From contig JBHLKY010000006.1 in assembly GCA_048886185.1 (NCBI GenBank), positions 90,001 through 122,000 on the forward strand: a stretch of 32,000 bases of DNA. The letters run 5' to 3'. Every line of letters starts with the position of its first letter. The first letter of the stretch is position 1. This DNA comes from Candidatus Hermodarchaeota archaeon (GTDB lineage: Archaea; Asgardarchaeota; Heimdallarchaeia; Hodarchaeales; Hodarchaeaceae). The notes beneath the pieces are model-generated. The model was given only the letters and a program-made list of their open reading frames with translations, did not search any database and was not told the origin of the DNA. The position numbers were made by a program, and so were the translations under genes. Positions 3,398 to 23,236 of the stretch are shown here, one piece after another.

Positions 3398-4711
3398 TTA
3401 TATTTCAGATTTAGTAATGTTAGAGGAATTTTGTTTTAATTTATATTCCAGAACTTGTTCACTAACTAGTTTTAAGAGTCCAACGTCTTTAGTGGAATCA
3501 CCAACCATGAATAAAGAAGTTTGTAATGCACTATCGGTCGCCCACTTCAATGCAATAGCATTTGACCCATGTTGGGACAAAACTATCTGAACCAAATCTG
3601 TACGAAATAATCGTGAACAAAGATTGTTGATTGCAATGAAAATTTGGCATATATATGCATGCTTTCTAGCAACGCGATTATTACTTGTGCGGAGGGTTTC
3701 AAATGTATGCATACTACACCGCAAGAGAGATACTTCTGTAATAATTGGTTTAAAGCTTCTTAGTAGTTCAAAGCTCCCATTTAAAAAATGGTTTTCTGGA
3801 AAAAGGTCACAACTATCCCTAATAGATATTGAATAGCGTGATATATTCGTCTCCACGGTGAGACTACTCTCAATATTTAGATTCCATAATATTTCCCGAA
3901 AGCTTCTAAATAGACTTCCCAGACGTCCTTTACCTGAACTAAATGCAATTATAAAATTATTTCGAATATATAATAGATAAAACTGCTGATTACTATATGT
4001 TTTCCCATGAATCTCGATGGGTAACGCATCAAAGAAAGTTCCATATGTCTTGAGTTCGTCTTCATAATTTTGCATAAGTGAGGGAATAGTATTTACCAAT
4101 GAAACTATATCTGGAGATAAGACAGTATTATGAACAGCTCGGATTGTTCCATCAGAAACTAGAACCGTTTCTTTATCGGTACATATTTCACTAATTCGGT
4201 TTTGAAGTGTATCATCTATTTTTGTTAATAGAATTTTTTTGATGTTCCCAAATACTTTGTGCAGAGAATATATATCCTGATTATTGTTATTTTGAATCTT
4301 AATTTCATGAATAGCCTCTTTTAAAATGTTTGAAAAAGCCAGAGAATGTTGTAATAATTTATCTTGATGAGAACGCGGAATAAATAACATGAAGCTTTCA
4401 ATACGATTTCTTCCTCTAGCTTCAGGATCATCTACCATGAATGAATGTATCAATACCCGTCCTTGAATACCTGTGACATTAATAGGAATAATTGCTGTTT
4501 CAGGATCTCCTGTTGGTTCACCCACCCCAATTGCCATGGTAAATAGTGTAGTAGTAACGCCTTGAAGAATGATTCTGGGGATTTCTAATTCGTGAGTCAA
4601 ATAGGAATCTAGAACAGGGCCATGTTCTTCATCAAAGATAATATGAGCTAAAAAAAACTGAATTGGAATGTCTTCTGGCCTATCAAATGTTCCCATAATT
4701 TTTGGGCTCAC
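3398..4711 (-). CDS. Folliculin/SMCR8-type longin (uDENN-like) domain fused to two roadblock-like domains
   Basis: aa17-135: FDEEHGP and HSFMVDDPEARGRNRIESF resemble the FLCN/SMCR8 longin; aa165-280 and aa308-425 have roadblock-like helix/strand order ending in LGSLF and VGLLKL; GTG start. Confidence 0.6.
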   Translation of the reverse strand: MSPKIMGTFDRPEDIPIQFFLAHIIFDEEHGPVLDSYLTHELEIPRIILQGVTTTLFTMAIGVGEPTGDPETAIIPINVTGIQGRVLIHSFMVDDPEARGRNRIESFMLFIPRSHQDKLLQHSLAFSNILKEAIHEIKIQNNNNQDIYSLHKVFGNIKKILLTKIDDTLQNRISEICTDKETVLVSDGTIRAVHNTVLSPDIVSLVNTIPSLMQNYEDELKTYGTFFDALPIEIHGKTYSNQQFYLLYIRNNFIIAFSSGKGRLGSLFRSFREILWNLNIESSLTVETNISRYSISIRDSCDLFPENHFLNGSFELLRSFKPIITEVSLLRCSMHTFETLRTSNNRVARKHAYICQIFIAINNLCSRLFRTDLVQIVLSQHGSNAIALKWATDSALQTSLFMVGDSTKDVGLLKLVSEQVLEYKLKQNSSNITKSEI

Positions 4712-4860
4712 CTTTTGCTTGTTATGTCTTGATTGAAAAAATCTTTCAAGATTACGATGGAATGGAATGTTCTAATTAGTTTTCTCATTACTTCAATTAA
4801 GTTTTTTTGAATACTCTTAGGAAATTCAACAAATTTTCTTACATCATAGATATCTGCCAT
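4708..4860 (-). CDS. Putative 50-aa small protein, not in the ORF track (MADIYDVRKFVEFPKSIQKNLIEVMRKLIRTFHSIVILKDFFNQDITSKR)
   Basis: ATG at 4860; TGA stop overlaps the GTG start of the next gene (GTGA, 4-nt overlap). Confidence 0.4.
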   Translation of the reverse strand: MADIYDVRKFVEFPKSIQKNLIEVMRKLIRTFHSIVILKDFFNQDITSKR

Positions 4861-4962
4861 TCAAAGTGACAAAATAGTCTTAAGCAAGCTCATATAATAA
4901 AATACTATGGCTTTCTTCCTGTAACTCCTTAAATCAAGAGAAAGAAACAATTAGTTTTGAAA

Positions 4963-5274
4963 TTAGGATTTTGATTTCTTTTTCTTTATTAAATCGATGA
5001 TTTCAGCCCATTCTTCTTCCTGTTTTGATTTTTTCGAAGGATTCAGACGATCCTTTACCCCTAATATATCTAATGCCCATTGGCGTTCCTCTTCTCGCTT
5101 TTTCTCCCTTTTAATTTCACGATGTTCTGCTGCACTAATCCAAGTCCCTAAGGCAGCTTCCTGAATACCACAATTGATGCAAACATACAATTTTTCTTCG
5201 GGATTCCAAAATAAAGTCCCTTCCTTACAATTGGTGCAAGGAATCAAAGAATCACGTACAGGAGGTTTGGACAA
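4963..5274 (-). CDS. TFIIB-type zinc-ribbon protein with charged helical C-terminus
   Basis: CTNC...LFWNPEEKLYVCINCG followed by a K/E/R-rich helix; starts 6 nt after the upstream roadblock gene. Confidence 0.75.
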   Translation of the reverse strand: MSKPPVRDSLIPCTNCKEGTLFWNPEEKLYVCINCGIQEAALGTWISAAEHREIKREKKREEERQWALDILGVKDRLNPSKKSKQEEEWAEIIDLIKKKKSKS

Positions 5275-5280
5275 AGTTGA

Positions 5281-5757
5281 TCACTTCTTCTTTGATAAAA
5301 TAATATCTAGTTCTTGGGGAGTAATCTTTAGAGGTCGCCTCAATGGGGGCCATTGTTGGATTATCTGTGAAATAGAATCAACAGCTGGACCAATTATTAA
5401 TTTCAAGAGCTCAAGGTCGACATAAGGATCCATCAATACTCCTAAAAAAGCGATTCGATCAATTGCTTGTAAAAATAGTTTATAATTACTACTTTCAGCG
5501 GTGAAAGAAACCCAAGGGGAACTGCCAATTTCATGACCAATTGTATCCATATTTGATTGAATACCAGCTACTAGTGAGCAAAGAATAAGGCTGCTTTCCT
5601 TACCTAAGGTGCCTTCCAGATTTACCTCCTCGATTAAAAGCCCATCATTATCAACACAGAATCCGGAATAAATACCATCGAGAGAATTCACGATATCTGT
5701 TAAAACTTGTCGTAATCCGATTTCTGATCGTCTTGAAGTATTATTAGAAAAAGACAA
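5281..5757 (-). CDS. Roadblock/LC7 (MglB-like) domain protein
   Basis: LRQVLTDIVNSLDGIYSGFCVDNDGLLIE ... FLGVLMDPYVDLELL is a typical roadblock pattern; TTG start. Confidence 0.82.
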   Translation of the reverse strand: MSFSNNTSRRSEIGLRQVLTDIVNSLDGIYSGFCVDNDGLLIEEVNLEGTLGKESSLILCSLVAGIQSNMDTIGHEIGSSPWVSFTAESSNYKLFLQAIDRIAFLGVLMDPYVDLELLKLIIGPAVDSISQIIQQWPPLRRPLKITPQELDIILSKKK

Positions 5758-12626: not shown

Positions 12627-13326
12627 CCTTCCTTCAATTCGACCTTATGTAATTCTATCTGCCGCCATCAGTCTTGATGGACACATCGCTACACTCAATG
12701 GAGACTCACTTCTATCAAATAGAGAAGATTGGATACGAGTTCACCATTTAAGAGCGGACTCCGACGCAATAATGATTGGCAGTGGAACTGTTCGAGCTGA
12801 TGATTCAAAATTGACTGTTAACGAAGATTTAATTGAGGTAAAAAATATAAACCATCCCATTCGGATTGTTGTCAGCTCTGATGGCATGATCCCTCTAAAT
12901 TCGAGGATTATTATTCATCGTCCAGACATTCCAACTCTTATTGCTACAACTTCACGATGTTCATTGATACAAACGGAGAAACTGGAAAAAAGAGGTTGTA
13001 AAATCATTAAATGTGGAAATGGCCCCTTAGTCGACCTAAGTAAGCTCCTATTAGTCTTAAAGACGGATTTTCAAGTTAATAAATTAATGCTTGAAGGAGG
13101 AAGCCAATTAAATGGGGCCATGTTAAATCTCCAGTTTATTGACGAAATTCAATTAGCAATTGCCCCTGTTATCTGCGGTCAAGGAATCCCACTTTTCAAG
13201 CTTTCTAAAGCTTTTTACATGTTTTCGGAGTCACCTTTTTTTGATATAAAATCATACAATCAAATTGGTGACATGATTTGGCTTAAAATGTTAATTAATT
13301 ATCAATCACGAGAGATTGCATTATAA
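12613..13326 (+). CDS. 2,5-diamino-6-ribosylamino-4(3H)-pyrimidinone 5'-phosphate reductase (RibD C-terminal/Rib7/ArfC type)
   Basis: RPYVILSAAISLDGHIA, VHHLRADSDAIMIGSGTVRADDSKL, LMLEGGSQLN, IAPVICG; no N-terminal deaminase domain; 14-nt overlap with the upstream gene. Confidence 0.88.
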   Translation: MSLFSLPSIRPYVILSAAISLDGHIATLNGDSLLSNREDWIRVHHLRADSDAIMIGSGTVRADDSKLTVNEDLIEVKNINHPIRIVVSSDGMIPLNSRIIIHRPDIPTLIATTSRCSLIQTEKLEKRGCKIIKCGNGPLVDLSKLLLVLKTDFQVNKLMLEGGSQLNGAMLNLQFIDEIQLAIAPVICGQGIPLFKLSKAFYMFSESPFFDIKSYNQIGDMIWLKMLINYQSREIAL

Positions 13327-13378
13327 TTGTTTCAGGAGTCTTTAAAGGATGAGATTTTTGAGATAAATTACCCCTATT

Positions 13379-14275
13379 TCATCCTAAAAAGAACATTACT
13401 ACAGCATAAATTATTCCAATGATTACCGCGTGAGATCCTTCAGGATCAAGAGATTTAGCTGCAAAATAAATTAGTACAACCCCCCAAATCAATATGCCCA
13501 TTTCTATGAAAAAAAGTATATCTCCCGTTATCCCGAGAGGTGTACTCATTGAAGATAGATCAAAAATATCATTTACTACATATGTTGTTGGCTCAGTAAA
13601 TAATGAAAAAAGGATAAGGCGTATCAGTTCACTGAATATTCTGGGGAGAAAACTCCAACCTATAATTGTAGCTATAGTTTTAAAATTTCTTTCATGTGAG
13701 GGAACTTGTGATGAAATTATCGATAATAATATCCACAAAATCACACTCCCGATTAACCAGCTAATGATGAATCCCAAAGGGGCAAAAAAAGCTGTAAATA
13801 TCGTCATAACCTCCACCACTTCTTCCATAGAAATGTCCATTCCTGAAAATCCTAAACTGTCATAAAATGCTTGTGTAAACTCTATTGTTGACTTTGAAGA
13901 GAGAACGAATAAAGCTATACCTGAAATAATTCCAGCTATCAAAACAACAAGAAATGGTTGGCCTAAATTCGGTCGTTTAACTATTCGAGCCATTTCCTGT
14001 TGAGGAGAAATCAGAACTCCTTGAAAATGCTGAAAAAACGGAGAGGGATGCTCAGCTGTTATTCTTTCTGGTCTATAAGAATCAGGATAAGAGGGAGTAC
14101 CTCTATCTCTTACAATTGAGGGGTATGAGGAGGGAGGTTTAGAACTAACTACTCCAGTTGGATCAACAGTTGGCACTGGGGTTCCGCAGTAAGCACAAAA
14201 AGTAGCTCCTCCAAGTAATTTCTGACCACAATTTCCACAGAATTTTGGGGAGCCTTTAGGACTGTTATTACTCAT
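13379..14275 (-). CDS. Double zinc-ribbon plus Yip1-domain membrane protein
   Basis: FCGNCG...FCAYCG, Pro/Ser-rich linker, then VLISP...five hydrophobic segments including IIGWSFLP. Confidence 0.78.
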   Translation of the reverse strand: MSNNSPKGSPKFCGNCGQKLLGGATFCAYCGTPVPTVDPTGVVSSKPPSSYPSIVRDRGTPSYPDSYRPERITAEHPSPFFQHFQGVLISPQQEMARIVKRPNLGQPFLVVLIAGIISGIALFVLSSKSTIEFTQAFYDSLGFSGMDISMEEVVEVMTIFTAFFAPLGFIISWLIGSVILWILLSIISSQVPSHERNFKTIATIIGWSFLPRIFSELIRLILFSLFTEPTTYVVNDIFDLSSMSTPLGITGDILFFIEMGILIWGVVLIYFAAKSLDPEGSHAVIIGIIYAVVMFFLG

Positions 14276-14486
14276 GAAAATCAGCTTTTGGTAGTGAAAT
14301 TTTTCATTAATTATAACAAAGGTACATGGAACATGGATTAAAAAATCTTCTTAGAAGGTTTATTTTAAATATAGACAATAGAACATGTGGTCATGATTGA
14401 TGACAAAAGTCTTCGAATTCTATCAAAAATATTAATGATGAGCGATATTGGAGATTAGATCGAAGAAAAAAAAAACCTATATGCCT

Positions 14487-14804
14487 TTAACTAGAACGAT
14501 CTTTTAACACAACGATAGTAAAGCCTGCAGCCTCATCAGGAGTGATAATTATTTCTGATTTAGGCATTTCTACATAAACACTTTGAAGTCGGCCATGTGA
14601 AAGAGCATCCGACACACTTCGAACCTTCTTAACCAATGATGCAATATGAGCTGATACTCTTTCTGCATCTGATTGTGGGAGATTACTTTGAAGTGGTAGC
14701 CCATCTTCATCACAAACTAAAATTCCTTTCACTCCACGTCGGGCTGCTAATCTTTTGATTGTGTTTTGCAATACAGAAGGTATAACATATTCATCATTAG
14801 ACAT
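14487..14804 (-). CDS. Roadblock/LC7 protein, dynein light chain roadblock (DYNLRB)-like, paralog A
   Basis: TIKRLAARRGVKGILVCDEDGLPLQSNL...KVRS...EIIITPD parallels DYNLRB [28 protein letters not shown]...KARS...EIMVAPD. Confidence 0.88.
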   Translation of the reverse strand: MSNDEYVIPSVLQNTIKRLAARRGVKGILVCDEDGLPLQSNLPQSDAERVSAHIASLVKKVRSVSDALSHGRLQSVYVEMPKSEIIITPDEAAGFTIVVLKDRSS

Positions 14805-14825
14805 TTAATTTCATCTTCCTTTTTA

Positions 14826-15170
14826 TTACTTTGATGTTAATGTCATAGTACTACTCTCCCGTTTTACTAGTGCCACAATAATGATTTCGGAGTCATAATC
14901 AGGAATTATTTCTACATCCCCAACCTCCAACTCTAACCGAATGCTTCTAGCTTCTTCTTGTGAAATTTCCCTTGAAATGCTTCTCACTTTTCCCACCAAA
15001 GAGGCAACATGTGCTGCTACTCTCTCTGTATCCTCTTCTGGAAGACTAGATTGGAGTGGTAATCCATCTGTATCACTCAACACAGCACCATATACTCCTT
15101 TATGTTTCCCGACTGATTCTATAACTTTTTCTAGCGCCTGTTGCGATAAATACCCTGCTTCTTGTGACAT
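14826..15170 (-). CDS. Roadblock/LC7 protein, DYNLRB-like, paralog B
   Basis: HKGVYGAVLSDTDGLPLQSSL...ASLVGKVRS...VEIIPD; shares a long block with the downstream paralog. Confidence 0.88.
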   Translation of the reverse strand: MSQEAGYLSQQALEKVIESVGKHKGVYGAVLSDTDGLPLQSSLPEEDTERVAAHVASLVGKVRSISREISQEEARSIRLELEVGDVEIIPDYDSEIIIVALVKRESSTMTLTSK

Positions 15171-15647
15171 TTTTCATCGTATCCTTAAGTGCCCAAGCAT
15201 ATGATGGCCAACTAATAACGATCTAAACAGTAAATCACAATTGTACTTAAAACCTTTTGCTTATAAGTTAGTGGAATTTTAATACTACTCTTGAGAATTT
15301 ACTTAATAATTCAATCAAATGAATATTCTCTGTACATAAACTTATTACGGTAATTTAAAATGTATAATATCAAAATCGGTTAAAAATTTTGATTTATATG
15401 CCTAAATGGAGCTTTTAAATGGGTATTTAGATACCAACTACTCAGATGTTAAGCTATAAACCAATTATTTGAATTTTTATCCTATTATTTATGGATTAAT
15501 CAATCTAAGAAGAATTTAAGGAAGACTTCATGGTCATCATAGTATGTAAGTGATAAATTAATGTGATTTTATAGAGAGAGTTCTGGTAGGCTAAACCTTA
15601 AAAGCAGCTAAAAACAATGAATTCATAATCCTTGGAGCGCATCGCGA

Positions 15648-16097
15648 TTGGTCCCACATAAAGATGAAAACATTAACACATCCCAAGAAAAACTAGATGA
15701 AATTTTGTCATCTATCAAAGAATTAAGATATCATATTGGCATCTTAGATCACAGAATCTCTCAACTCGAGGGGCATATAGACCAGAAATTATCGACTGTT
15801 ACAAAATCTGTTATCTTTCAATCCAGTGTTGATGATGAACAGAAAACAGATTTTGATGATTTAGATGAACATTTGAAACGGACATATCAAACCTTAGCTA
15901 CTGCTCAGGAACCTCTGACTGCCTCACAATTGGCTGAAAGGATGGGAAGGAGTCGCAGCACAACAAGCTATCATTTAAACAAACTTGAAAAGATGGGAGT
16001 TCTTGAAAAATTCCCAAGCCCATTAAAACAAAGTTCAAGAAGTATTCTTTTCCGTCCGAAAGATCGATCATTTGAATTAATAGACTCAGAGCATTAA
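15648..16097 (+). CDS. Coiled-coil plus winged HTH (ArsR/TrmB-like) transcriptional regulator
   Basis: Heptad-like LDEILSSIKELRYHIGILDHRISQLE, then LTASQLAERMGRSRSTTSYHLNKLEKMGVL; start uncertain (TTG). Confidence 0.8.
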   Translation: MVPHKDENINTSQEKLDEILSSIKELRYHIGILDHRISQLEGHIDQKLSTVTKSVIFQSSVDDEQKTDFDDLDEHLKRTYQTLATAQEPLTASQLAERMGRSRSTTSYHLNKLEKMGVLEKFPSPLKQSSRSILFRPKDRSFELIDSEH

Positions 16098-16151
16098 ATT
16101 TTCTTCTGTATAATTTATTAAAGGAAAAAAGTTGAAAAAGAGTTTTATTAA

Positions 16152-16688
16152 TCAAGAGGTAAACTCTAGAATTTCTTTCCCTAATTGATCGAAAGCAGCT
16201 TGAACCCCATCACCTGTTTTCGCACTAGTTTCAATGAAACTTAATCCAAGACGGTCAGCAAGCTTTTTACCTTCTTCTGTAGACACGGTTTCTGTTCCTT
16301 CCTCACGTAAATCAGTTTTATTTGCCAAGAGAACCACAGGTACGTCTTGATCACGTTTAGAGTTAGCTAAAATGTCTTTGAGCCATTTTTCCACATTTTC
16401 AAACGTTTGTCGTCGTGTGATGTCATAAACAAGGATTCCACCAAAAACTTTTGTATAATAAGCCTTTACAACATCTTTAAACACAGGTTGTCCGGCGAGA
16501 TCCCATATTTGCCAACGAATATGCGTATTATTTACTGTTGTATCATATAGGGCGAAATCGGCGCCCATCGTACTTAAATAATCAGTTTCAAACCCCTCAC
16601 CTAAGTAACGTTTACGTAGAGAGGTTTTGCCAACAGCTCCGTCTCCCAGTAGTACAATCTTCCATAAACGATGATCCTCATTACTCAA
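16152..16688 (-). CDS. Rab-like small GTPase (Asgard type)
   Basis: G1 GDGAVGKT, G2 YLSTMGADF, G3 WDLAGQ, G4 NKTD, G5 ETSAK; AAGGTGA SD before the TTG start; no C-terminal cysteine. Confidence 0.95.
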   Translation of the reverse strand: MSNEDHRLWKIVLLGDGAVGKTSLRKRYLGEGFETDYLSTMGADFALYDTTVNNTHIRWQIWDLAGQPVFKDVVKAYYTKVFGGILVYDITRRQTFENVEKWLKDILANSKRDQDVPVVLLANKTDLREEGTETVSTEEGKKLADRLGLSFIETSAKTGDGVQAAFDQLGKEILEFTS

Positions 16689-16992
16689 CTATTTCACCTT
16701 ACATTTTTCTTATTTAGCTAGATTTAATAGTTCAATTGTCTTCTAAATTCGTTATATAAAGGTTTCAATCCTACACATATAGTGATGAAAGAGATTCTCT
16801 AGTCTCCAGCTGTAGTCTCACTGAGACATATTTTTTCTTCATCAATATTTGCTTATATCTGTGTTTTACTTGTTTTAACTCAATTTTCTTATAACACATA
16901 AATATCATTTGATTCGTGAGGAAGGTGCCAAAAAAATTAGAAGTTCAACACAATTTAAACTTTATAGAATTCTCGGATCCAGAAATTAAAAA

Positions 16993-18696
16993 TTAATCAT
17001 CTGATTTGGAATTAATATGAGACACTTGTCTCACATATCCTCGTCTTCGCAATTCTTCGAGGCATTCAAGCTCTAAATTTTGGTCTCGTTTTGTTATTTC
17101 TGTAGCTGTTTCGGGAGAAAGCACTTTGGAAGTAAGTAGAGCTCTAATAGTGGGTCTCAATTTTTCTGGTAGATCTAGAATTCCTAAAGTATCAAAGGGC
17201 TGAATTTGGACATATTTGGGAGGTTCCGAACATACACAAATCTTTCTCCCAATTTCTTCTTCCAATTTATGTCTTTTAGACCGTGGATTAATTCCTAATT
17301 TAAGCAAATAGTCATGTCTAGGATTATGGGCAGTTGTAAACTCATAAAGCAATAAATCAGTGACAAAAGGGTCACTGATGTTTTTCTGAACATAATTATG
17401 GAATAAGATTTCAGGATCGCCTCTTAATAGATCCATTTCAGCCCCGTATGCAAGTATATTCTGTCGTAACTGCTCATTTACAGTCACTATATCAAAAACA
17501 TATGTTTCAAAAATTTCTTCAACATATTTCGTTGCCCCCGCAAATCCACTAGTCTTTCCAGTCTTAGAAAAAATATCTATTGCTTCTTTGAATTCTTTCT
17601 CAAATCTCGTTATATATTGAAAAAGTAATTCGGTTAAGTTATCACTCATAATCGGGCTATAAAGAATACCAATTACATGTTTCCCCTTCCTTTGAGCAAT
17701 TTTCATGTTTCCATTATCAATATAGCGTAAATCGCCGCGACGCCCAGCTGTTTCTGATACCATATGAGCTATGCTAGTTAACGCTGCTGTAATAAGGGCA
17801 GGATTTTTCATTTCATCCTCTGCCTTTCCAAAAAAGTAATAATACATAGTTGATCCTGATTCACGATCTGTAATAAATAAAGCTATAGGTGAAGCTTCTG
17901 TTCCAATAGTAATCCAATCAAACTCTTCTTTTTCTGTGAATTCTTGGAATTTTTCACTCAAATCTTGAAATGTTTCATTCACAATAGATTGTGGTGATTC
18001 TAAATAATAAACACCTTGATCAGAAAAGTCATTAAGTTCAGGAATCCACGGGATTGCATAGAAAATCGGGTGTCTGAATTTTGATTCCATTTGTGTGAGG
18101 AATTGATCGAATTTACCAAAAACTAAAGGAAATTTGACCATGTTCATGATTAATAAAGTAGGTGTGGTAAGGAAGGACAAAAAGTTTTGAATAGTAGATT
18201 TTGTTAGATTAAATGTAGGGTACTTTTCTGATGAAATAACCCAAACCATATCACTCTGTAGAATTGTAGCCATTGTAATACTGTTTTCTTCTAAGCTCAC
18301 AGGGAGAATGAACACTAAAAGATCGATGGTATCCTTGAAAAAGAGGGCGTTGACACGATATTTAGTACGTTCTCTTAAATCACTTGTTGGCAATGGACAC
18401 CCTGCAGAAGGAAGAACACGTATAAAGGATCCTTTATCCTCATCCTCGAAGATTGATAAAGATTCGCTTACAAGAATATCTTCAGATATCTCGCTTAGAA
18501 AATCTGTACTAGTAAAATTCGATTTACCATATCTAAGTAAAGTATATCTTAGTTTTTCAGTAATGGAAAAATCAACAATAAGAATACGAAGTCCAGGCTT
18601 TGAACGGGCATAAGCTAAAAGGGCATTTAATGCGATTGTTTTTTTCCCACAACTAGGGGTACGAGAATAAACACTTATGATTTTGGGAGTTACCAT
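16993..18696 (-). CDS. Degenerate MinD/ParA-like domain fused to a longin domain and a C-terminal winged helix
   Basis: aa1-255: MinD-like order of motifs (IISVYS..SCGKKT, ILIVD, SDMVWV, LIMN, AIPW, ESPQS). aa270-397: longin pattern (LFITDRESG, LITAALTSI, YITRFEKEF, F...VEEIF). About aa505-560: wHTH (LEELRRRGYV). Confidence 0.68.
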   Translation of the reverse strand: MVTPKIISVYSRTPSCGKKTIALNALLAYARSKPGLRILIVDFSITEKLRYTLLRYGKSNFTSTDFLSEISEDILVSESLSIFEDEDKGSFIRVLPSAGCPLPTSDLRERTKYRVNALFFKDTIDLLVFILPVSLEENSITMATILQSDMVWVISSEKYPTFNLTKSTIQNFLSFLTTPTLLIMNMVKFPLVFGKFDQFLTQMESKFRHPIFYAIPWIPELNDFSDQGVYYLESPQSIVNETFQDLSEKFQEFTEKEEFDWITIGTEASPIALFITDRESGSTMYYYFFGKAEDEMKNPALITAALTSIAHMVSETAGRRGDLRYIDNGNMKIAQRKGKHVIGILYSPIMSDNLTELLFQYITRFEKEFKEAIDIFSKTGKTSGFAGATKYVEEIFETYVFDIVTVNEQLRQNILAYGAEMDLLRGDPEILFHNYVQKNISDPFVTDLLLYEFTTAHNPRHDYLLKLGINPRSKRHKLEEEIGRKICVCSEPPKYVQIQPFDTLGILDLPEKLRPTIRALLTSKVLSPETATEITKRDQNLELECLEELRRRGYVRQVSHINSKSDD

Positions 18697-19019
18697 TTTT
18701 ATTTCAGCACTGAGAGTGATAAACTGGAGTCCTTTAAAGAATAAATTTAGAAAATGACTTATTCGTCAATTTATAGTTGATACTAAGGCCTGATACATAG
18801 GAAGGAGAAAGGAATTTAAGAATTTCTAGTTTATTCTTCTGAATTATCAATTCTTTATTAATAATTTGATCTTGCTAATAATATGATTTTTTCCAGTTCC
18901 CAATCAATAAACTTTTTGTTTAATATAAAAGATTATCAATTAATACCTAAATGACAAAAAGACCACTCAAAAGTATTTCAGTTGTGGCAAAAAACTCATT
19001 TATGTAAGGACTGTTTTGA

Positions 19020-19838
19020 ATGGAACAAGAGACGCAAGATCAAAATCCTAATGTCTCATTATCTTTAGATGAAGTTGGACTAACAGACTTTCAAATTCAA
19101 GTTAATATAACCCGAGGTACGAGAGTTTATCATTATCAAACGACTGTTAGTGTCGTAATTAATTTGCCACCTTCCCGAAAAGGAGCCCATCTGTCTCGAT
19201 TCGTAGAATCTATCTCGGAGATCTTGAGTAGTGAAGTCCATACTCATTATTCATTAGAAGAGATGTCAATCCACGTTTTACAGACTTTAAATGAACATCA
19301 TCCATTTGAAAAAGGATCAATGACTCTAGAGTTTATATTCTTTACAAATAGAACTACTCCAGTCTCTCAACGATCCTCAGTTGAAAATTATAATGCTCAA
19401 TTGACCACATGGTTGAACCAAGGGGATATCACACATGATTTAACTTTAGGAACGTATGGTAGTACCGCTTGCCCTCATGCACTTTCTCAAAACTCTGCAA
19501 AACGCACACATATCCAACGAGCTTATGCAGAAATCAGTTTAAAAGGCAGAACAGCAGATATTCCTGACATGGAAGATATAAGCATGATTCTTGATGAAAG
19601 TTTCTCAGCTCCGACGTTTTCTCTAATAAAAGCAAAAGATGAGCAATGGATTATCAATCATATGTGGGAACATCCATTTTTTGTTGAAGATGTGACACGA
19701 AATCTGTTACAATTTGCATTAAAGCAATTCTCAGACCGGAGGCTAGAAATTCGAGCAAAAACTATCTCTCAAGAGTCCATTCATAAGCACAATATCATAT
19801 CGAAAGGTAGTACAAAAACAGAAGGTTATGGTAAATAA
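19020..19838 (+). CDS. GTP cyclohydrolase, FolE2/MptA family
   Basis: LDEVG, KGAHLSRFVE, TACPHA, HIQRA, KAKDE, PFFVEDVTR, ESIHKHN. Confidence 0.88.
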   Translation: MEQETQDQNPNVSLSLDEVGLTDFQIQVNITRGTRVYHYQTTVSVVINLPPSRKGAHLSRFVESISEILSSEVHTHYSLEEMSIHVLQTLNEHHPFEKGSMTLEFIFFTNRTTPVSQRSSVENYNAQLTTWLNQGDITHDLTLGTYGSTACPHALSQNSAKRTHIQRAYAEISLKGRTADIPDMEDISMILDESFSAPTFSLIKAKDEQWIINHMWEHPFFVEDVTRNLLQFALKQFSDRRLEIRAKTISQESIHKHNIISKGSTKTEGYGK

Positions 19839-21805: not shown

Positions 21806-23236
21806 ATGGCAAGTGCAATAAAACTAATAGCAGGTTTTTTCATTATACTAATAGGTTTCCCGATATTTATTGGTGGAAGCGCCTTATTATTAGTTGTACC
21901 GCTTTTCACGGATAGCCAAGGATATTTCATGACAAGTCCTATTCGCATCTCAGAGGAAGGATATTCCGCTATCCGTGTGGACATTCCCTTAGAAGATATT
22001 GAGATCGGAGTGCGTGTTGAGCCTTCGAGATTTGTCACACTAAGAATGGATGTTTATGGAGAGACTTCTAGTGATCAAGTTTTCTTAGGGTTGGCTGAAG
22101 ATTCTGAAGTTGATAAAGCTCTTACTTCAAATGTTTCCTATGTCAAAATAACCAACTTTGAATATTTTGCAGCTTGGGAGTTTAATAAGGATCCAGAGTA
22201 CCGAATGGAGCTAGAATTTGTAGAAAACGAGTCTACCAGAACTGTTCCACAAATAGACGATGTTACGTGGTTTAGAGATACAGGAGAAACTGGATTTTCC
22301 TTCAAATGGGCTCCAACGATTGCAGAACTAGAAAGAGGTACTCTATCATTGTTATTGATGAACGAAGATCTTGGAGAATCCAATAGCATTGATATTACTT
22401 TTAGAGTTGGTGCTAAAATACCTATAATCAATGCTATAGGATGGGTTCTAGTAGTATTTGGTGGATTATTCACCTTACTAGGCATTATTCTTGTATGGAG
22501 TGGATTACGGACAAAAAAACCACGAACAGAGCGTGTGCGTTACTACCAAGGAGCTCCTGCTACAAGAGTTGATACTGTTACTAAACCAACACCCCAGTAC
22601 CAACTGCAATGTTCTAATTGTGGTTCATTAAGTGAACCAGATAGCACTTTTTGCTCTCAATGTGGTGAGATTCTCCTTTCTGAGGATCGAAAAACTGTAG
22701 AAGAACTAAAAGTGAAAAAAGATATTGAAGTATTCGAACCTATAGGTTCTAAACTAGTTGTTGCCGAGGGATGGCCTCGTTTTTGGGCATGGTTAATTGA
22801 CATCCTGATTACTGGTGCAATCACTGGTGTCTTTAGTTCTATAATCTTCTTTGGTCTTGGTGATTGGAGCTGGTGGTCTTTCGGTTTATGGAGTCCTTTT
22901 CAATGGTTCTTTAGTTTAGGTCCCTCTTCAATTGTCTTCTTCGTATATTCAGTCATTATGGAACACTATTACGGCCAAACTTTGGGAAAGATGGCTTTAA
23001 ATCTAGAAGTCGTATCAGAGGCTACTGGTGACCGTCCTATTTTACAAGATATCATTATCTCTGCATTAGGAAAATCATTTTTCTTACCCTTAGATGTCAT
23101 TTTGGGATTAATTGCTAAAGATAAAACCCAAGTTCCAGATCTCAATCAAAGATTAACTCAGAAGTGGGCAAAAACAGTCATCATCCAACAAAGCAAAAGA
23201 AAAGAATCTACTCAATTTGTATCTGGTAGGGTTTAG
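21806..23236 (+). CDS. Membrane protein: two TM-flanked external domain plus double zinc ribbon plus RDD domain
   Basis: CSNCG...FCSQCG; RDD motifs RFWAWLIDILI, GQTLGKMALNLEVV, QRLTQKWAKTVII. Confidence 0.82.
   Translation: MASAIKLIAGFFIILIGFPIFIGGSALLLVVPLFTDSQGYFMTSPIRISEEGYSAIRVDIPLEDIEIGVRVEPSRFVTLRMDVYGETSSDQVFLGLAEDSEVDKALTSNVSYVKITNFEYFAAWEFNKDPEYRMELEFVENESTRTVPQIDDVTWFRDTGETGFSFKWAPTIAELERGTLSLLLMNEDLGESNSIDITFRVGAKIPIINAIGWVLVVFGGLFTLLGIILVWSGLRTKKPRTERVRYYQGAPATRVDTVTKPTPQYQLQCSNCGSLSEPDSTFCSQCGEILLSEDRKTVEELKVKKDIEVFEPIGSKLVVAEGWPRFWAWLIDILITGAITGVFSSIIFFGLGDWSWWSFGLWSPFQWFFSLGPSSIVFFVYSVIMEHYYGQTLGKMALNLEVVSEATGDRPILQDIIISALGKSFFLPLDVILGLIAKDKTQVPDLNQRLTQKWAKTVIIQQSKRKESTQFVSGRV

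Follow-up and report, generated by a model that had tools for sequence, protein, structure and literature searches.

In several known systems, platforms made of longin or roadblock domains bind small GTPases and set their nucleotide state, as is the case for MglB, Ragulator, TRAPP and Mon1-Ccz1. In Ragulator, the roadblock heterodimers LAMTOR2/3 and LAMTOR4/5 dock proteins in which a nucleoside triphosphatase (NTPase) domain is joined to a roadblock domain. In the signal recognition particle (SRP) receptor, the SR-alpha chain binds the small Ras/Arf-like GTPase SR-beta. For the Asgard archaeon MK-D1 it has been reported that GTPase genes generally lie outside operons with roadblock or longin genes, and partners could not be read from the gene layout (Tran et al. 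2024, PMC10933270). Here we describe a six-gene locus in a 32,000-nucleotide (nt) window of contig C6 from a Hodarchaeales genome (G000; 4.84 Mb, 96% complete). It encodes the same kinds of proteins as those studied in the Asgard work, and the Thorarchaeota Rab and Asgard roadblock structures are the best PDB matches of its products; in contrast to MK-D1, this locus does pair a GTPase gene with roadblock and longin genes. We consider that the locus encodes a small-GTPase regulatory module, with a probability of about one half.

An earlier note on this DNA had proposed six open reading frames (ORFs), and all of them are present, with coordinates, strands and domains in agreement with its description (Table 1). 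Read along the minus strand, the order is the gene of a 567-amino-acid (aa) three-part protein, the Rab-like GTPase gene, a winged helix-turn-helix (wHTH) gene on the opposite strand, the roadblock genes RoblB and RoblA, and the gene of a Yip1 membrane protein. Calculated from the coordinates, the spacers measure 304 nt between the 567-aa gene and the GTPase gene, 54 nt between the convergent 3' ends of the GTPase and wHTH genes, 477 nt between the divergent wHTH and RoblB genes, 21 nt within the roadblock pair and 211 nt between RoblA and the Yip1 gene. Hence, the minus strand holds at least three transcription units. The note had given the spacers as 200-480 nt, which is right for three of them but not for the roadblock pair, which is operon-tight. 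Its suggestion of separate transcripts agrees with these several units, among which only RoblB-RoblA is operon-like. An Rfam scan of positions 13000-19200 returned zero matches.

Table 1. Features of the locus in window coordinates, and protein identity across the GTDB genus for the locus genes and two flanking genes.
Feature	Position	Strand	Basis	Identity across the genus
567-aa three-part protein (P0001): degenerate ParA/MinD-like part, longin-like part, helical region with winged helix	16993..18696	-		58-84%
ParA/MinD-like (SIMIBI-type) N-terminal domain, residues ~1-255	17932..18696	-	profile matches in orthologues	
Longin-like domain (LLD), residues 262-400	17497..17913	-	AlphaFold2 (AF2) model and structural alignment	
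Helical region, CxC motif and C-terminal winged-helix-like domain (residues ~494-558)	16996..17496	-	AF2, alignment	
Rab-like small GTPase, 178 aa, TTG start	16152..16688	-	PF00071 1.9e-48	75-95%
149-aa protein: helical N-terminal half and ArsR/MarR-type wHTH	15648..16097	+	Pfam	35-72%
Conserved promoter-like block, 74-96 nt upstream of the RoblB ATG	15244..15266	-	reads ...AAGCAAAAGGTTTTAAGT	
Roadblock paralogue B (RoblB), 114 aa	14826..15170	-	PF03259 1.2e-15	83-97%
Roadblock paralogue A (RoblA), 105 aa	14487..14804	-	PF03259 1e-16	86-98%
298-aa membrane protein: N-terminal zinc ribbon, Pro/Ser-rich linker, Yip1 domain	13379..14275	-	Pfam	32-69%
folE2 (flank)				62-84%
RibD_C (flank)				53-69%

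The GTPase carries a complete set of motifs, namely GDGAVGKT, the switch I T, WDLAGQ (DxxGQ), NKTD and SAK. It had been called Rab-like, and this holds: in a PDB sequence search its closest solved relatives are the Thorarchaeota Rab (6.8e-41) and Rab11A, followed within the top 60 by Ypt6, Rab1, Sec4, Rab8 and Rab6. The protein does not contain any cysteine and ends with ...GKEILEFTS directly after the G domain, so that a C-terminal prenylation cysteine motif following a hypervariable tail is absent from it. Yip1 proteins of the eukaryotic type bind the diprenylated tails of Rab proteins. Because the GTPase is cysteine-free, its prenylation appears impossible and, judged from the sequence, eukaryote-style binding of a prenylated Rab by Yip1 cannot apply here; the eukaryotic Rab-Yip1 relationship would not be transferable to this locus.

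Both roadblock proteins score far above the Robl_LC7 cut-off (60.9 and 57.4 bits against 23) and are 42% identical to each other. For both, the best PDB match is an Asgard roadblock structure (7f8f at 7.3e-13 for RoblB), followed by dynein light chain roadblock proteins, and human DYNLRB1 scores 1.4e-8 with RoblA and 1.4e-7 with RoblB, which bears out the earlier description of the pair as DYNLRB-like. LAMTOR5 is a secondary Pfam match for both, and MglB is not among the PDB matches of either protein at E <= 0.01. RoblA and RoblB probably form a heterodimer.

In MglA-MglB of Myxococcus and Thermus, a Ras-like GTPase is regulated by a roadblock dimer acting as GTPase-activating protein (GAP). 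As in that system, a GTPase gene lies near roadblock genes in our locus, and the regulator is likely to be a roadblock dimer; moreover, the longin-like domain found in the 567-aa protein can be aligned with MglB structures at Z scores of 9-11. Unlike MglA, the GTPase is Rab-like with a canonical DxxGQ, and instead of one MglB there are two DYNLRB-like paralogues, for which a heterodimer is expected. The GTPase gene is separated from the roadblock genes by a gene on the opposite strand rather than sharing one operon with them, and a longin fusion, a Yip1 protein and a wHTH protein are added. An MglA-type GTPase gene co-transcribed with a single MglB gene is not found at the locus.

For the 567-aa protein we found 65 full-length homologues with 58-84% identity, all of them from Hodarchaeales, and the gene is carried by 20 of the 21 genomes of the window's genus (GTDB species genomes). 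In the sister family, one of two genomes has a diverged homologue with 26-28% identity. No further homologue was found at E <= 1e-20 in a sample of 400 genomes of the phylum, which yielded only the same genus and one 2.3-kb contig. A metagenome scan with P0218, a distant full-length homologue with ~20-30% identity like P0069-71, gave zero matches. Pfam assigns no family to the window copy, and a PDB profile search with the family returned chance matches only. The combination of pseudo-ParA domain, longin and winged helix is restricted to Hodarchaeales, and our literature search found no paper describing this architecture or the locus.

Profile matches to the N-terminal part were obtained with the orthologues, 9 of 25 of which match CbiA (PF01656, best E 5.4e-6), eight AAA_31 and four ParA, while the window copy matches none of these; the fold is poorly predicted, with low AF2 confidence over this domain. 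ParA/MinD proteins have the deviant Walker A motif KGGxGK[ST] and carry an aspartate in Walker B. Comparing the motifs by eye, we found that the orthologues share YSRTPSCGK(K/Q)T in their Walker A region instead of KGGxGK(T/S). At the site of the Walker B aspartate there is a Leu, Ile, Val or Ala before an invariant Pro, in the pattern (I/L/V)F(I/L/V)(L/I/V/A)P. Since the Walker A motif is altered and a hydrophobic residue occupies the aspartate site, the domain is probably a pseudo-ATPase that has lost the canonical catalytic residues.

The earlier note had described the protein as a longin fusion, which is right at the level of the fold and by structure only. The AF2 model of the LLD, built from the diverse alignment A2, has a predicted local distance difference test score (pLDDT) of 86.2 and a predicted TM-score (pTM) of 0.82. 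Its topology, b-b-a-b-b-b-a-a, has the strand order of longins with a five-stranded sheet. Structural alignment (VIA) to longins over 118-131 residues gave Z scores of 13.3 for Fuzzy, 12.8 for VAMP7, 12.4 for Bet5, 12.3 for Sec22 and 12.1 for MON1A, compared with Z 9-11 over only ~100 residues for roadblocks; the best Foldseek match is TRAPP Bet5. No Pfam family, the curated longin families (Longin, Sedlin_N, Sybindin, Clat_adaptor_s, Fuz_longin) included, matches the LLD region of P0001 or of 25 orthologues at E <= 1, and in a nearby Atlas cluster Fuz_longin_1 is found on 22% of the members only. The domain occurs in 358 representative proteins and has no Pfam model. In them it is fused to CBS pairs, MFS transporters, transmembrane segments and ParA-like domains, and according to the Atlas neighbours it occurs archaea-wide rather than being specific to Asgard archaea.

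Over residues 330-560 the AF2 model of the 567-aa protein reaches a pLDDT of 78-90. The two cysteines of the CxC motif, C487 and C489, are invariant among the orthologues, and residues 502-566 align weakly to the winged helix of TFE-alpha (Z 7.7 over 65 residues). With the whole model, Foldseek ranks Rag GTPases, which consist of an NTPase and a roadblock domain, first, although weakly (E ~1e-3, TM-score ~0.22).

The protein resembles Rag-Ragulator in having an NTPase-like part followed by a roadblock/longin-type domain next to a separate small roadblock pair, and the LAMTOR5 and Rag matches point in the same direction. However, where Rag proteins have their G domain it has an N-terminal domain that is ParA/MinD-like and degenerate, the strand order is that of longins and not of roadblocks, and a LAMTOR1-like anchor was not identified at the locus. 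The longin-containing Rab guanine nucleotide exchange factors (GEFs) TRAPP Bet5/Trs23, Mon1-Ccz1 and Fuzzy-Inturned/CPLANE provide the best structural matches of the LLD (Z 11-13), and here, too, a Rab-like GTPase adjoins. In contrast to them, the LLD lacks a Pfam family match, shares only 7-15% identity with them and has the archaea-wide occurrence and the fusion partners described above. The SRP receptor likewise combines a longin and a SIMIBI-class NTPase in one chain (the SRX and NG domains of SR-alpha), and SRX structures align to the LLD with Z 10-11. The domain order of the 567-aa protein is reversed, though, its NTPase part is ParA/MinD-like and degenerate, and a role in protein targeting is unsupported.

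This genome has 63 Ras-family, 11 roadblock, 4 Yip1 and 24 longin-like ORFs. Of 20,000 trials in which these genes were placed at random over the whole genome, 20 (0.1%) had a Yip1 gene with each of the other three families represented no more than 5.4 kb away, a figure that is generous as the families were picked after seeing the locus. The grouping is therefore unlikely to have arisen by chance, and the density exceeds the genomic background, as the earlier note had expected. Of the 11 roadblock genes, 5 lie within 2 kb of a Ras gene, against 4.9% at random positions. Pairings of LLD and Ras genes also recur. On contig C19, a gene for a 256-aa LLD protein begins 15 nt after a Ras gene (L030, G000:C19:66000-84000), and a 315-aa ORF (C17:28818-29765) matches both the Ras profile (C17:28851-29324) and the LLD profile and looks like a Ras-longin fusion. 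Two C19 proteins of about 560 aa, considered as ParA-like paralogues, were rejected, being tandem fusions of an MFS transporter and an LLD (548 and 558 aa).

Another gene group resembling GTPase regulators lies upstream, at window positions 3398-5757 together with G000:C6:88149-88616. One member, a protein of 437 aa, matches a Folliculin-type longin (PF11704, 27.8 bits; cut-off 23.3). The others are a small zinc-ribbon ORF, a weak 158-aa roadblock protein (E 4.8e-4) and a weak Ras-family match, the last in a frame of 318 aa that lies shortly before the window begins.

Outside the genus, we could compare the sister family, represented by two genomes with short contigs (G069 and G070). RoblB-RoblA orthologues with 52-56% identity are found in tandem in both. 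In G069, the pair is preceded, 90 nt upstream and in the same direction, by a gene for a 256-aa LLD protein (E 1.2e-13 with the LLD profile), so that LLD and roadblock pair are linked there independently and in another arrangement. Moreover, Ras, LLD and roadblock genes occur within 7.5 kb on contig C137 of this genome. This independent support reaches the core of the locus only, and not the Yip1 or wHTH genes.

From these data we propose the following mechanism. The switch would be the Rab-like GTPase with its complete catalytic set (P-loop, DxxGQ, NKxD, SAK). A longin/roadblock platform, made up of the RoblA/RoblB heterodimer and the LLD within the 567-aa protein, would bind this switch and control its nucleotide state. 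The ParA-like domain, probably dead as an ATPase, and the winged helix at the C-terminus may place or scaffold this complex without burning ATP. The zinc-ribbon-Yip1 protein might serve as a membrane docking site, and the divergently encoded wHTH protein as a local regulator or as a partner that depends on the nucleotide state. We infer these physical interactions, and any link to membrane traffic, as in the proto-trafficking module suggested by the earlier note, would be hypothetical; the roles of GEF, GAP and receptor are assigned by analogy, and the sequence does not decide between a GAP and a GEF.

Gene order is of limited help in judging this proposal. Our synteny set consisted of 18 related loci, all from one GTDB genus. 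The order of the 567-aa, GTPase, wHTH, RoblB, RoblA and Yip1 genes is kept in all 14 loci with enough flanking sequence, and two more loci hold it up to the contig end, so that up to the roadblock genes the order is the same in 16 of 16. A conserved order in close relatives had been named by the earlier note as a test of its idea; it was found throughout, but it has little power. Collinearity extends to the unrelated flanks to the same degree, and the loci come from a single genus; for these reasons we rejected synteny as proof of a module.

The genes may share nothing more than a neighbourhood, RoblB-RoblA being the only functional unit and the rest abundant Asgard families standing side by side in a genus-frozen order. 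We regard this as unlikely, yet as the most serious alternative to a GTPase module, and a number of observations weigh for it or against our proposal. The neighbourhood is collinear over ~20 kb in every locus, including folE2, three unknown genes, RibD_C, an amidohydrolase, a PALP enzyme and one other gene, among them unrelated metabolic genes. Only the roadblock pair is operon-tight, with the other spacers at 211-477 nt and one gene on the opposite strand. Taken together, LLD genes show no clear enrichment close to Ras genes (3 of 24 lie within 2 kb of one, the expectation being 4.9%). Of all locus genes, the roadblock pair alone stays together in the sister family: the closest GTPase homologues there (54-56% identity, putative orthologues) sit among TPR, EamA, proteasome and SBDS genes, and the gene following RoblA in G070 encodes a multi-pass membrane protein without detectable similarity to Yip1 by BLASTP, the Yip1 profile, Pfam or hhalign. 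The Yip1 and wHTH genes diverge much faster than the core. Furthermore, about half of the lineages have an insertion, which indicates that the locus tolerates one. Against a mere neighbourhood stand the co-occurrence of four families in so few random trials, the recurrence of LLD-Robl-Robl in the sister family in a different arrangement, and the recurrence of Ras-LLD and Ras-Robl pairs and of a fusion in the same genome.

The insertion is a 248-aa gene between the 567-aa and GTPase genes, present in eight loci (L008, L010, L011 and L014-L018) and not at the window locus. In L010 (11895-12641), 5 nt separate its end from the start of the GTPase gene. As it has no Pfam family and has three paralogues (54-69%) elsewhere in the genome, on contigs C4, C22 and C10, it lies outside the conserved core. 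The most conserved genes of the region are the roadblock pair and the GTPase gene (Table 1).

Two genomes need a comment. In G049 the 567-aa gene and RoblB are both missing; this co-absence is uninformative, as folE2 and RibD_C are missing too and the whole region is unassembled. In G057, the locus (L029, G057:C1:166000-185999) starts abruptly with a fragment of RoblB (residues 78-114), followed by intact RoblA, Yip1 and RibD_C genes, and the 567-aa, GTPase and wHTH genes are missing upstream of the fragment at the breakpoint. Either a deletion or a mis-join could account for this; we treated the case as a problem of assembly or rearrangement and did not use it as evidence.

Within the proposed GTPase module, the Yip1 and wHTH proteins are the least certain members, and their inclusion draws mainly on adjacency. 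The zinc ribbon (Zn_Ribbon_1, 9e-7, residues 12-34) and the Yip1 domain (PF04893, 3.6e-15, residues 86-297; 56.7 bits against a cut-off of 28.6) are well supported, and four cysteines of the protein are invariant. It is known that Yip1 occurs in all three domains of life, and our control searches with its profile found matches in E. coli, B. subtilis and methanogens. With Yip1 in bacteria and methanogens and the LLD archaea-wide, neither is a eukaryote-type marker. That the zinc-ribbon-Yip1 protein belongs to the module is a tentative idea, which we would put somewhat below an even chance.

Only one other strong zinc-ribbon-Yip1 gene was found in the genome. It has the gene of a 404-aa Ras-family protein on one side and that of an Arf-like GTPase on the other, within a VPS28/UEV/ThiF cluster of the ubiquitin/ESCRT type. 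This cluster (L032, G000:C14:30000-46000) comprises VPS28, a UEV/E2-like protein, the 404-aa protein with its long N-terminal extension, PAP2, zinc-ribbon-Yip1, a ThiF E1-like protein, a KaiC-like protein and the Arf-like GTPase. Within the window, a gene at 21806-23236 encodes a 476-aa protein with a zinc ribbon and an RDD membrane domain. In joining a zinc ribbon to a multi-pass membrane part it recalls the Yip1 gene, and its position is collinear among all relatives.

The wHTH protein matches HTH_20 (4.7e-11), HTH_5 (1.3e-9) and MarR (1.6e-9), all inside residues 74-125. Its gene, convergent with the GTPase gene and divergent from the roadblock pair, keeps place and orientation in all 16 loci reaching that far, at a low identity (Table 1). 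In the 477-nt spacer, the block listed in Table 1 is the sole long one with at least 90% column conservation among 16 sequences, and it resembles an archaeal B recognition element (BRE)/TATA element, as far as can be inferred from its letters. Repeats in this spacer are limited to short AT-rich inverted ones, with no convincing operator among them. A role of the wHTH protein as a local regulator is possible, and our confidence in it is about the same as in the membership of Yip1, or slightly lower.

A second alternative is prokaryote-style G-protein signalling of the conservon or MglA/MglB kind, in which the GTPase, the roadblock proteins and the NTPase-like protein would act on gene expression or cell polarity by way of the wHTH protein and of the winged helix in the 567-aa protein, with no link to vesicles. 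ParA/MinD-type proteins are positioning factors, and a ParA/MinD-like part would fit such a role, as would a GTPase without a lipid-anchor cysteine and the presence of winged-helix domains in two of the six proteins. The actinobacterial conservon CvnABCD is a single operon encoding a histidine-kinase-like membrane ATPase, a roadblock protein, a DUF742 protein and an MglA-like GTPase (PMC8510531). This parts list comes close to our locus, with its NTPase-type protein, roadblock proteins, HTH protein, Ras-like GTPase and membrane component, and CvnB5 is among the PDB matches of RoblA (E 0.004). However, each component belongs to another family, and the locus consists of several transcription units rather than a single operon. 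The GTPase is Rab/Ras-like with DxxGQ and not MglA/CvnD-like, and the roadblocks are closer to DYNLRB than to MglB or CvnB. Pfam detects neither HATPase nor DUF742 in the six proteins, DUF742 is not among the 18 Pfam matches of the wHTH protein, and a histidine-kinase-like gene is not present. We therefore judge this explanation rather improbable, and less likely than a neighbourhood without common function. A dedicated Rab-type cycle, in which the zinc-ribbon-Yip1 protein would recruit a lipid-free GTPase that is switched by the 567-aa protein and the DYNLRB-like heterodimer, as a living precursor of the longin-GEF/Rab/Yip1 logic, is the most doubtful of the readings considered.

All protein kinds at the locus belong to published Asgard "eukaryotic signature" families. 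Hodarchaeales have been proposed to be the archaea most closely related to eukaryotes. Asgard genomes contain dozens of small GTPases, with 63 Ras-family matches in this one, next to many roadblock and longin proteins, and in MK-D1 the gene layout was reported not to tell which GTPase a regulator belongs to (PMC10933270). Against this background, the locus offers a concrete and highly conserved candidate set of one GTPase, one putative roadblock heterodimer, one longin scaffold and one Yip1 protein. If the products do form one complex, they would show how longin/roadblock platforms were connected with Rab-like switches at a stage that preceded prenylation and endomembranes.

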